In this document: piece after piece, positions 34,401-37,400 of the stretch
Layout: every line of letters starts with the position of its first letter
How positions within the stretch are numbered: position 1 is the first letter of the stretch
Program-made: the position numbers
NCBI RefSeq assembly: GCF_041248615.1
Contig: NZ_CP158426.1
Reading direction: 5' to 3' (one strand)
Source: Escherichia coli
Lineage (GTDB): Bacteria; Pseudomonadota; Gammaproteobacteria; Enterobacterales; Enterobacteriaceae
Length of the DNA: 64,000 bases

Positions 34401-37400
34401 TGAACAGGAGGCTTTTTACCCTGGAACTCTGCCGGGCTTGCTGCCTGACGTTCATCAAGCCAACGCTCAACTTCGTCACGGTTCCATGCGCAGCGTTTGT
34501 CAGTGATATACCAGCGTTTAGGAAATTCACCTGCGCGCTCCATACGGTCGATAGTGCTCCATGACAGTGGCACCACCGCCAGGAGTTCCTTCTTACCTAA
34601 TGCACCTTTCATAAATACCTCTCTTGGTTGCAGTGCGGCGCGCGTGGCGCCGCGGTGGTGGTTACATAGATGTTTCGTTTAATTCTTCCCGACGAACGCT
34701 GTAAACGTCGGTGGCTTTTGCCAGCAGTTCGTCATCATCTGAAAGTTTTTGTGCAATGTATTTGTAAGCCTTATCCAGTTCGGAGACAGTGCTGTAATTC
34801 ATCGCTGCGCTGGTAAAGGCCATCAGCATTTCTTCTGGATCACGGCTATCCGCTTTACGCGTTTGCTCATCATGCTTTTTCACTGGTTTAGCGTTGATCA
34901 GACTGTTCATTCCCGCAGCAGTAGTCGTTTGCGGAGTAATGTCTCGCTCAACGCGCGGTGCCGTTTCCTGTAATTCGTCAGGGGTGTAAACACCGAGAAG
35001 CACATCAGGAGCGTGCAGGCGAGCCCATCGTTTCGTGCAAAGATAGGCAAGCTGCTGGCGCGGATCCTGTTCCCACAATGGAGAGTTACGCACTCCGGCT
35101 TGCGCCATACTGATGGTAAGCTCACGGGGTTCTGCTTCTCCTTTAAGAACTGCTGACACAGTTACCGTCAGATTCGGTGATTTATCTGTTTTGCCGTTAA
35201 CATTCGACCAGTCACCGCTCCAGCGATAATTCAGGCGTGTCGCTAGCAGGCTGGAAGAGGATACGACCGCGTTTACCAACTGTGCTTCGTAGCCTAACGT
35301 TCCGTTTACCACATGCGTTTTCTGCGCCACGGCGAAAGGGTTCATTCCCCACTGTGCCGCCTGCATGGTCACCGCCAGACAATCGGCAGGTTTGCCTTCA
35401 AGATGTTTCGGTACAGTCGCTTTGCTTTGTGACATCAACTCCGCGAAACGCACCAGTTGATTCATGCCCTCGGGGCTGAAGATTGCCGCAGCAGTGCCTA
35501 CAGTTGCGCCTGGTTGTGATGTGATTGCGATATCATTGCTCATACGTACATATCCTGTTTACGTGCCCAGTCAGGGCGTTTAATAATTTCCACGCCGCCC
35601 CATTCATCATTTATGCGGCATTCGTGATAGGTATTCAGATCCCGGCGGAACAGAGCGTGCCCGGCATCGACATCCGGCGCATCCAGCTCGAACACGCGTA
35701 CCGGATACCGACCACAATCAATGCTTTCGCTCACGGCAAGAAAGAAAAAACCATGCGGTTGACCAGTAACCCTCATTGCGCCTTCGCGGTACATTGCGTC
35801 CTGCACGTGGTAGCGGAATTCCTCGATGTGGCGTGCAAAACGGTCCATATCTGCAACCTTTTTCACGTCGACGATCACGTTGTGCTCGTTCAGCCATTTG
35901 TCTGGACGAATGCGGCACAACTCACCCGTCTCTTCATCGTTCCAGTACATTGATGCTTCGCAGTAACCAGGTGCTTCCAGCATCCAGCGTGCCGCCGGAT
36001 GAGCCATTGCGCTATCACGCATGAGCTCAAGTTTTCGCCACTGCTCGACATCAAGTACCGTAATACCCATATCCGCCACATCACGAAGAAATGCTTCTTC
36101 GTCAGCTTTACCTTGTTTTGTCCGACGATCGAATTTCGGTGAAACGATGAAGCGTTTGTCAAACTCTCCAGGTTCCAGAAGCAGACAGTGCAGAGCAGTA
36201 CCCATGTCCAGTGCAGACTTCTTCTCTTCGTCTTCCGGAGCAGCCTTCACCCATTTCAGAAGGGCAGGGTTCTTAGCCACCATATCTAGCTGCGACTTAC
36301 TCACGCCGTCACCGGCGTGGTAGTCCTCGTTGCTGATATCGAAATAAATTCCCGGATTCATGCCGCGTCCCTCTGCCCATCAATCTGATCAGCCAGATCC
36401 CAGCGGGCGATAATTGCCATTGCCTCGCGCCGGTAGGCATCCATCAGTTCTTCGAACTCAGGGCTGTCTTTAGCAGCCTCCAGCACTTCCTGACGAACGC
36501 CTTTGCCTGTTACAACGTCGAAAGTTGAGGACAGTTGATGAAGTCGGATGCTCTCAATCAGTTCAACTTGTCGGTCATATAGCTGTTCTGACAGGCGGTA
36601 GTCCTTGTCGAATGCCAGCATGATTTTTTGAAGATTTTTCTGCTGATTAACGTTCATTATCAGCCCTCCCATATCTCGTTATCGTTGGCTACATCGCGAG
36701 CTTCTTTGCTGACGAAAGCCCACTTAATGCCTTCCTGTAAGGTGCGGAACTTCCAGCTCATGAATCCGCATGCAGTAACGCAGTACCAACCGTTGATGAT
36801 TTTCCACTGCATAACTTGTTACCTCGGTCTGTTACTGTTGAGGTAATGATTATGCGTATCTGGTTTGATGTCAATAGATATGAGTTAAAAAAATTACCCA
36901 TAAGGTAATCTTGTTGGCAATAAAAAAGCCGCCATAAGGCGGCTTACTTACTGAAAAATATGATTTTATTGTTTGTTTTTTTCGTTCTGGTTGATGACAA
37001 ATTCAATGTAACTTTCGATCTTTGCCTTCTCTGTTTCAGGTAACAATGCGTAGCGCGAGCGGTCATAGTTGATAGTTGCAGGGTCATGCGGATGAATCAG
37101 TAGTTCATATCCGTGACGCCCGAATGCAGATGCAACATTCTCCAGGGTGGAAATGGAAACGCTGACTTCATTGTTTAACAGGCGGCTTATTGTCACCTGG
37201 GCGACGCCGGATGCGCGGTGAAGTTTTCCCTGAGTTGAAAGGTCGCGGCTTTCACTCATCCAGCGTTCCAGGTTGTGAGCTGCCAGCTGACCAATGTCGC
37301 TTGGGCCGACAGGCTGAAAACCTTCCTGAGAAAGCGAGCGATCGATATCAAGCCAGTTACGGGGTTTATTGGCGGCAGCTTCAATTTTTCGCGCAACCTG

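Follow-up and report, generated by a model that had tools for sequence, protein, structure and literature searches.

A RecE-type exonuclease gene coupled to a RecT/Redβ-superfamily annealing protein gene in a phiV10/ε15-like prophage of Escherichia coli

We analysed a stretch of 64,000 nucleotides from the Escherichia coli contig NZ_CP158426.1 (assembly GCF_041248615.1), which we call the window, and in it two neighbouring genes on the minus strand. One encodes a 273-amino-acid (aa) nuclease and the other a 293-aa single-strand annealing protein (SSAP). The two genes are adjacent, co-oriented, coupled and conserved, they are located in an early operon, and they represent a two-component exonuclease and SSAP phage recombination module. 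It is highly probable that this is a two-gene system for homologous recombination, in which a minimal RecE-type exonuclease is coupled to an SSAP of the RecT/Redβ superfamily, and that it is carried by a phiV10/ε15-like prophage beside guaA. The pair is real but already known: it is an ordinary, widespread and previously annotated prophage recombination module.

The exonuclease and the annealing protein

The analysis followed up a sequence-only reading of the window, which had proposed a 273-aa and a 293-aa open reading frame (ORF) at this place. Both are present, and the RefSeq annotation (PGAP) places the same two genes in NZ_LT599825.1 of E. coli NRZ14408, a record that is 100% identical here. 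Classification with hidden Markov models (HMMs), which that reading had recommended for both proteins, assigned the SSAP to Pfam PF03837 (E = 8.3e-32) and PHROG 561 (1.4e-145), and the nuclease to PF12684 (E = 1e-21) and PHROG 412 (1.1e-125). These values exclude chance by far for both ORFs. The domain searches therefore placed the 293-aa protein among the SSAPs and not, as the reading had allowed for, in a non-SSAP family.

The stop codon of the nuclease gene and the start codon of the SSAP gene overlap in an ATGA, and direct reading of the junction gave gtacgtATGAgc. This ATGA recurs in most of 80 related loci, and the overlap implies translational coupling of the two genes. Direct reading also gave a second ATGA overlap, gcggcATGAatc, between the stop codon of an upstream 104-aa ORF and the start codon of the nuclease gene. 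Overlapping start and stop codons had been proposed for the whole operon. They were found at these two junctions but do not run further, since the SSAP gene ends with TAA and is followed by a 49-nt gap before an alpA-like gene.

The nuclease is homologous to the catalytic domain of RecE. Its residues 12-268 (257 residues) aligned without gaps with PDB entry 3H4R, which holds RecE 606-866 (E = 8.2e-78), and it was 49% identical over 268 aa to the C-terminus of Rac RecE (residues 595-862, E = 5e-97). The Pfam model PF12684 (DUF3799) matched it with 78.3 bits (cut-off 26) and matches the Rac RecE C-terminus as well, and PHROG 412 bears the name 'exonuclease VIII'. In the alignment with Rac RecE, H58, D154, D165 and K167 of the nuclease stand opposite H652, D748, D759 and K761, with no gaps. 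From structural work on RecE, we take these residues to be its PD-(D/E)xK centre. The NCBIfam model PRK09709 was matched at profile positions 606-873 only, with 311 bits, below its full-length cut-off of 1269. Since the protein has 273 aa and only this part of the model was matched, it is a relative that consists of the catalytic domain only, rather than an equivalog of exonuclease VIII (Exo VIII). Judged by its sequence, it is the natural equivalent of the truncated RecE (Exo VIII) catalytic domain, and its predicted activity is that of a 5'->3' exonuclease on double-stranded DNA (dsDNA).

The description of this protein as a PD-(D/E)xK exonuclease that is not λ-Exo-like was borne out. BLASTP against λ Exo gave E = 0.11, and the YqaJ model PF09588, which matches λ Exo itself at 2.7e-30, did not match the nuclease at E <= 0.01. 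The same reading had also spoken of 'YqaJ/RecE-type features'. The RecE half of this phrase holds (3H4R, 49% identity, DUF3799), while 'YqaJ-type' is wrong: PF09588 (YqaJ) describes the family of λ Exo, and the nuclease does not match it.

The family of the SSAP is less easily named. PF03837, called 'RecT', covered residues 35-197 with 110.8 bits (cut-off 24). Since λ Bet (115.6 bits) and Rac RecT (188.9 bits) both score on it, it is really a superfamily model, and the label 'RecT family recombinase' on the SSAP has to be read accordingly, because the model also includes λ Bet. The NCBIfam models split the references cleanly: λ Bet is recognised by TIGR01913 (169.5 bits) and Rac RecT by TIGR00616 (415.7 bits) and PRK09846 (NF007351, 464.5 bits). 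On the SSAP, neither the Bet model TIGR01913 nor the RecT models TIGR00616 and NF007351 gave a match at E <= 1. Bet belongs to PHROG 252 and RecT to PHROG 148, and PHROG 252 did not match the SSAP. Membership of the Bet family, as judged by TIGR01913 and PHROG 252, was thus not upheld.

The similarity that remains is directed towards Bet and away from RecT. Cross-matches to PHROGs 10056, 2449 and 4171 are common to the SSAP and Bet and are not found for RecT. BLASTP aligned SSAP residues 157-218 with λ Bet 143-211 at E = 0.002, compared with E = 0.51 for Rac RecT. When a family profile of 141 sequences, drawn from a library clustered at 50%, was compared using hhalign, Bet was matched at E = 1.2e-4 over 50 columns and Rac RecT at E = 0.56. 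The 'Bet-like segments' that had been noticed are therefore real but weak. A plain homologue search with the SSAP returned only about 99% identical E. coli proteins; the family comprises 6891 representative clusters at E <= 1e-3.

In the confident AlphaFold model of the SSAP (predicted local distance difference test score, pLDDT, 89), an N-terminal annealing core spans about residues 17-191. A disordered linker (192-235) joins it to a three-helix bundle at the C-terminus (236-292), and Redβ has the same domain plan. A Foldseek search of the PDB gave 7UJL (Redβ) with a probability of 1.00 as the sole real match, with no RecT in the top 50. In the fold comparisons, Redβ and RecT were the top relevant structural matches and the model showed the annealing-core fold. 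The structural alignment with Redβ had 12-14% identity. HMM searches of the PDB sequences, with the single SSAP sequence or with the family profile, retrieved neither Redβ nor RecT, so that the fold comparison alone linked them. These results make the SSAP a member of a third branch of the RecT/Redβ superfamily. It lies slightly closer to Redβ than to RecT, without being a strict member of either the RecT or the Bet family.

Such a branch has been described. As summarised in PMC8093625, the EHAP1-like family of Iyer, Koonin & Aravind (2002) is a distinct third subgroup of the superfamily from E. coli and Salmonella. Judging by names and description, our SSAP probably belongs to it. Like that family, it represents a third branch and is found in E. 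coli and Salmonella, here in their phages, and in some records it carries the legacy name 'enterohemolysin 1'. The EHAP1-like family was described from E. coli and Salmonella, whereas the SSAP family defined here is much larger.

Compared with Rac RecE/RecT, the window pair has a nuclease homologous to the RecE catalytic domain, with the same Pfam model and the same catalytic residues, the same order of nuclease followed by SSAP with overlapping stop and start codons, and an SSAP in PF03837. It differs in that its nuclease lacks the N-terminal region of about 600 aa of the 866-aa Rac RecE, and in that its SSAP fails TIGR00616, with neither BLASTP nor hhalign detecting a similarity to Rac RecT. 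From λ Red the pair differs as follows: the nuclease is of the DUF3799/RecE family and not of the YqaJ/λ Exo family, the SSAP fails both TIGR01913 and PHROG 252, and no Gam homologue is present.

Conservation of the pairing and alternative readings

To describe the partners of the SSAP, we used 80 IMG/VR loci with an SSAP 51-100% identical to that of the window. A RecE-type nuclease lies directly upstream of the SSAP in all 80 and a YqaJ-type nuclease in none, with identities going down to 51% for the SSAP and about 66% for the nuclease. Among seven more distant family members (SSAP 38-51% identical), four lie beside a YqaJ-type nuclease, two beside a DUF3799 nuclease, and one has no nuclease nearby. 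Taken together, the two sets mean that the SSAP family pairs with either nuclease fold and that the clade of the window is stably RecE-type. The RecT-type SSAPs of Firmicutes phages are likewise partnered by a YqaJ-like or a DUF3799 nuclease (PMC8093625). Since RecT-type SSAPs co-occur with either nuclease, a change of partner is the rule rather than an exception.

These data bear on the proposal that the pair is 'mixed'. In a loose sense it is, with an SSAP that leans towards Bet and a nuclease that is RecE-like. As an unusual or recent chimera it is not, given the same pairing in all 80 loci, and a 'mixed' pair is expected rather than surprising because the type of nuclease and the family of SSAP can be exchanged as modules. 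The strong form of the proposal would be a Bet-family SSAP that a recent recombination brought beside a RecE-family nuclease in place of its cognate λ-Exo-type partner, possibly leaving the two with unmatched protein-protein specificity. We consider this unlikely. The SSAP does not match the strict Bet models and shares only 12-14% identity with Redβ in structural alignment; the pairing is not recent, as its persistence across the 80 loci shows, and it is also found on two distant contigs; and exchange of partners is common for RecT-type SSAPs (PMC8093625).

Within the clade, the two genes do not always diverge together. In loci L052-L060 the nuclease is 97% and the SSAP 73% identical to the window, which places a mosaic breakpoint at the junction of the two genes or close to it. 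We read this uncoupled divergence as typical phage mosaicism. A milder difference was seen in L031 and L037 (nuclease 92-93%, SSAP 82-83%).

The junction between the two genes shows a further peculiarity. In several related phages an HNH endonuclease gene (AP2/HNH_3, with the motif CIEWTGY...HRVAYC...RHKCDNPxCxNPxHLE) sits precisely in the interval that separates the nuclease gene from the SSAP gene. It occurs in loci L033, L036, L051 and L086, with about 415 nt between the genes, and in L007 (1960-2520), where the partner nuclease is YqaJ-type. The gap looks like a recurrent insertion site for homing endonucleases.

Of 5426 complete E. coli genomes, 476 (about 9%) carry the 1.7-kb pair. It is found at 96-97% identity in the isolated phages phiv142-3, vB_EcoP_PAS61, TL-2011b and ZX5, at about 81% in Salmonella phages and at about 76% in a Klebsiella phage. 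RefSeq labels the two proteins 'RecT family recombinase' and 'PD-(D/E)XK nuclease-like', and the phage records (phiV10, TL-2011b, phiv142-3, PAT1 and others) use 'RecT' and 'exonuclease VIII/RecE-like'.

A known system close to this pair is the ε15-like (Uetakevirus) 'RecET' of phiV10 (L052, NC_007804), encoded by p37. It shares the genes, the operon and the type of prophage with the window, at about 90% nucleotide identity over 87% of the query. It differs in that the phiV10 record shows p37 as one fused ORF of 586 aa, while the genes are separate in the window and in the relatives compared. What fuses the two frames is a single additional A within an A-run just ahead of the ATGA junction, about 20 nt upstream of locus position 3001 in L052 (GCAAAACAGG versus GCAAACAGG; compare window positions 35560-35575). 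A frameshift mutation or an error in sequencing probably accounts for it, rather than a true fusion. We therefore rejected a RecE-RecT fusion as a distinct architecture.

Silent recombination genes are common in E. coli prophages, and Rac recET requires activation by sbcA. One could accordingly regard the window pair as a decayed, non-functional remnant of a cryptic prophage. This is very improbable: both ORFs are intact with their catalytic residues conserved, nearly identical genes (96-97%) are carried by the four propagating phages named above, and the prophage itself keeps its integrase, repressor, replication, terminase, portal and capsid genes.

The name 'enterohemolysin 1' is attached to a 99% identical protein (P0007) and appears in the TL-2011b record JQ011317.1, and the Ehly1 determinants had historically been located on temperate phages of E. 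coli O26 (PMC6784236). That the 293-aa protein is a haemolysin or a haemolysis-associated virulence factor instead of a recombinase is nevertheless hardly credible in view of its strong HMM and fold assignment to the RecT/Redβ superfamily, the location of its gene, which belongs to a recombination operon and is coupled to that of a RecE-type nuclease, a model without signal peptide or membrane features, and the paper of Oscarsson et al. (2002), according to whose title, as cited in PMC4164713, the haemolysin name is a misnomer. The label is a legacy mis-annotation that is propagating.

Proposed mechanism and significance

By analogy with the known systems, the two-gene module may work as follows. 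The nuclease would resect dsDNA ends in the 5'->3' direction and leave 3' single-stranded tails. The N-terminal core of the SSAP would coat the 3' tail and anneal it to complementary single-stranded DNA such as that offered by a replication fork or another resected end. The C-terminal three-helix bundle may contact the nuclease and/or the host single-stranded DNA-binding protein, as in Redβ. Both biochemical activities and the contact between the two proteins are suggested by knowledge of the families, and the promoter of the operon by a consensus scan.

The third SSAP branch appears to be experimentally uncharacterised and to swap nuclease folds. A possible, rather tentative extension is that this large branch combines one conserved annealing core with two nuclease folds and that the fast-diverging C-terminal bundle sets the partner specificity. 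The C-terminal domains show almost no BLASTP similarity even within the family, and a test for covariation between this domain and the partner type was uninformative for that reason. If the bundle does determine specificity, the family would be a natural system for working out the rule that governs partner specificity in phage recombinases.

The literature searched contained no published functional or recombineering test of the pair. Its use in recombineering, which the sequence-only reading had put forward, is plausible but putative. Under the tentative reading above, the compact 273-aa and 293-aa pair, native to E. coli, might serve as an alternative dsDNA recombineering system. Such a trial is conceivable, and many pairs of this kind are already available. 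The value of the finding lies in little beyond correct annotation: the 'RecT' label comes from a superfamily model, 'enterohemolysin 1' is a misnomer, and the partner is an equivalent of truncated RecE.

Prophage and operon context

The pair belongs to the early-left operon of an E. coli podovirus prophage that is phiV10/ε15-like (Uetakevirus). The chromosomal order is xseA, guaB, guaA and then the prophage, which opens with a tyrosine integrase gene and is inserted immediately downstream of guaA (guaA 3' end to integrase, about 31700-31870). The minus-strand operon comprises a 50-aa ORF, the 104-aa ORF, the nuclease, the SSAP, and AlpA-like, PerC-like, MT-A70 and DUF1382 proteins. Beyond the repressor gene, rightward replication genes (DnaT-like and P-like) are followed by podovirus structural genes. 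In gene order and content the prophage matches phiV10 (Uetakevirus, ε15-like). Coordinates are given in Table 1.

Table 1. Features of the recombination operon and its surroundings in the window
Feature	Position	Strand	Description
Tyrosine integrase	31867-33117	+	First prophage gene
DUF1382 protein	33121-33435	-	Operon end; homologue of λ orf63
MT-A70-family DNA methyltransferase	33312-33962	-	Same prophage operon
PerC-family transcriptional activator	33955-34254	-	Same prophage operon
SSAP ORF	34662-35543	-	293 aa; single-strand annealing protein, RecT/Redβ superfamily, probably EHAP1-like branch
ATGA overlap	35540-35543	-	Nuclease stop / SSAP start; read directly
Nuclease ORF	35540-36361	-	273 aa; RecE-type PD-(D/E)xK exonuclease
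Small ORF	36358-36672	-	104 aa; PHROG 856, no Pfam match; 99 aa from 36657 in PGAP
Candidate σ70-like promoter	36846-36874	-	TTGACA-17-AATCAT; consensus scan; downstream of hairpin, ahead of operon
Terminator-like hairpin	36926-36945	-	Strong; 8-bp stem, 6 G-C pairs, T-run; 3' of repressor gene
Two-helix-turn-helix repressor-like gene	36966-37550	-	Upstream of recombination operon

The 104-aa ORF, ATGA-coupled upstream of the nuclease, has a homologue in 69 of the 80 close viral loci and is absent from the distant loci. It showed no similarity to λ Gam. Being confined to the close clade and unlike λ Gam, it was rejected as a core third component or Gam analogue. It is an operon neighbour, not shown to be part of the recombination function.

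Upstream of the operon, the phiV10 record has an annotated terminator at the place equivalent to the terminator-like hairpin. The σ70-like site between the hairpin and the operon may be the promoter of the operon that holds the pair. We give it as a weak candidate, because the number of promoter-like sites in the region in the consensus scan was not above the shuffled expectation.

Two of the remaining operon genes deserve a comment. In pathogenic E. coli, regulators of the PerC-like type are linked to the control of virulence. DUF1382 corresponds to λ orf63 of the exo-xis region, which is located just downstream of exo, and is thus early-left-operon content common to the podovirus prophage and λ. 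In the identical RefSeq record, a tRNA-Arg gene is annotated within the prophage.
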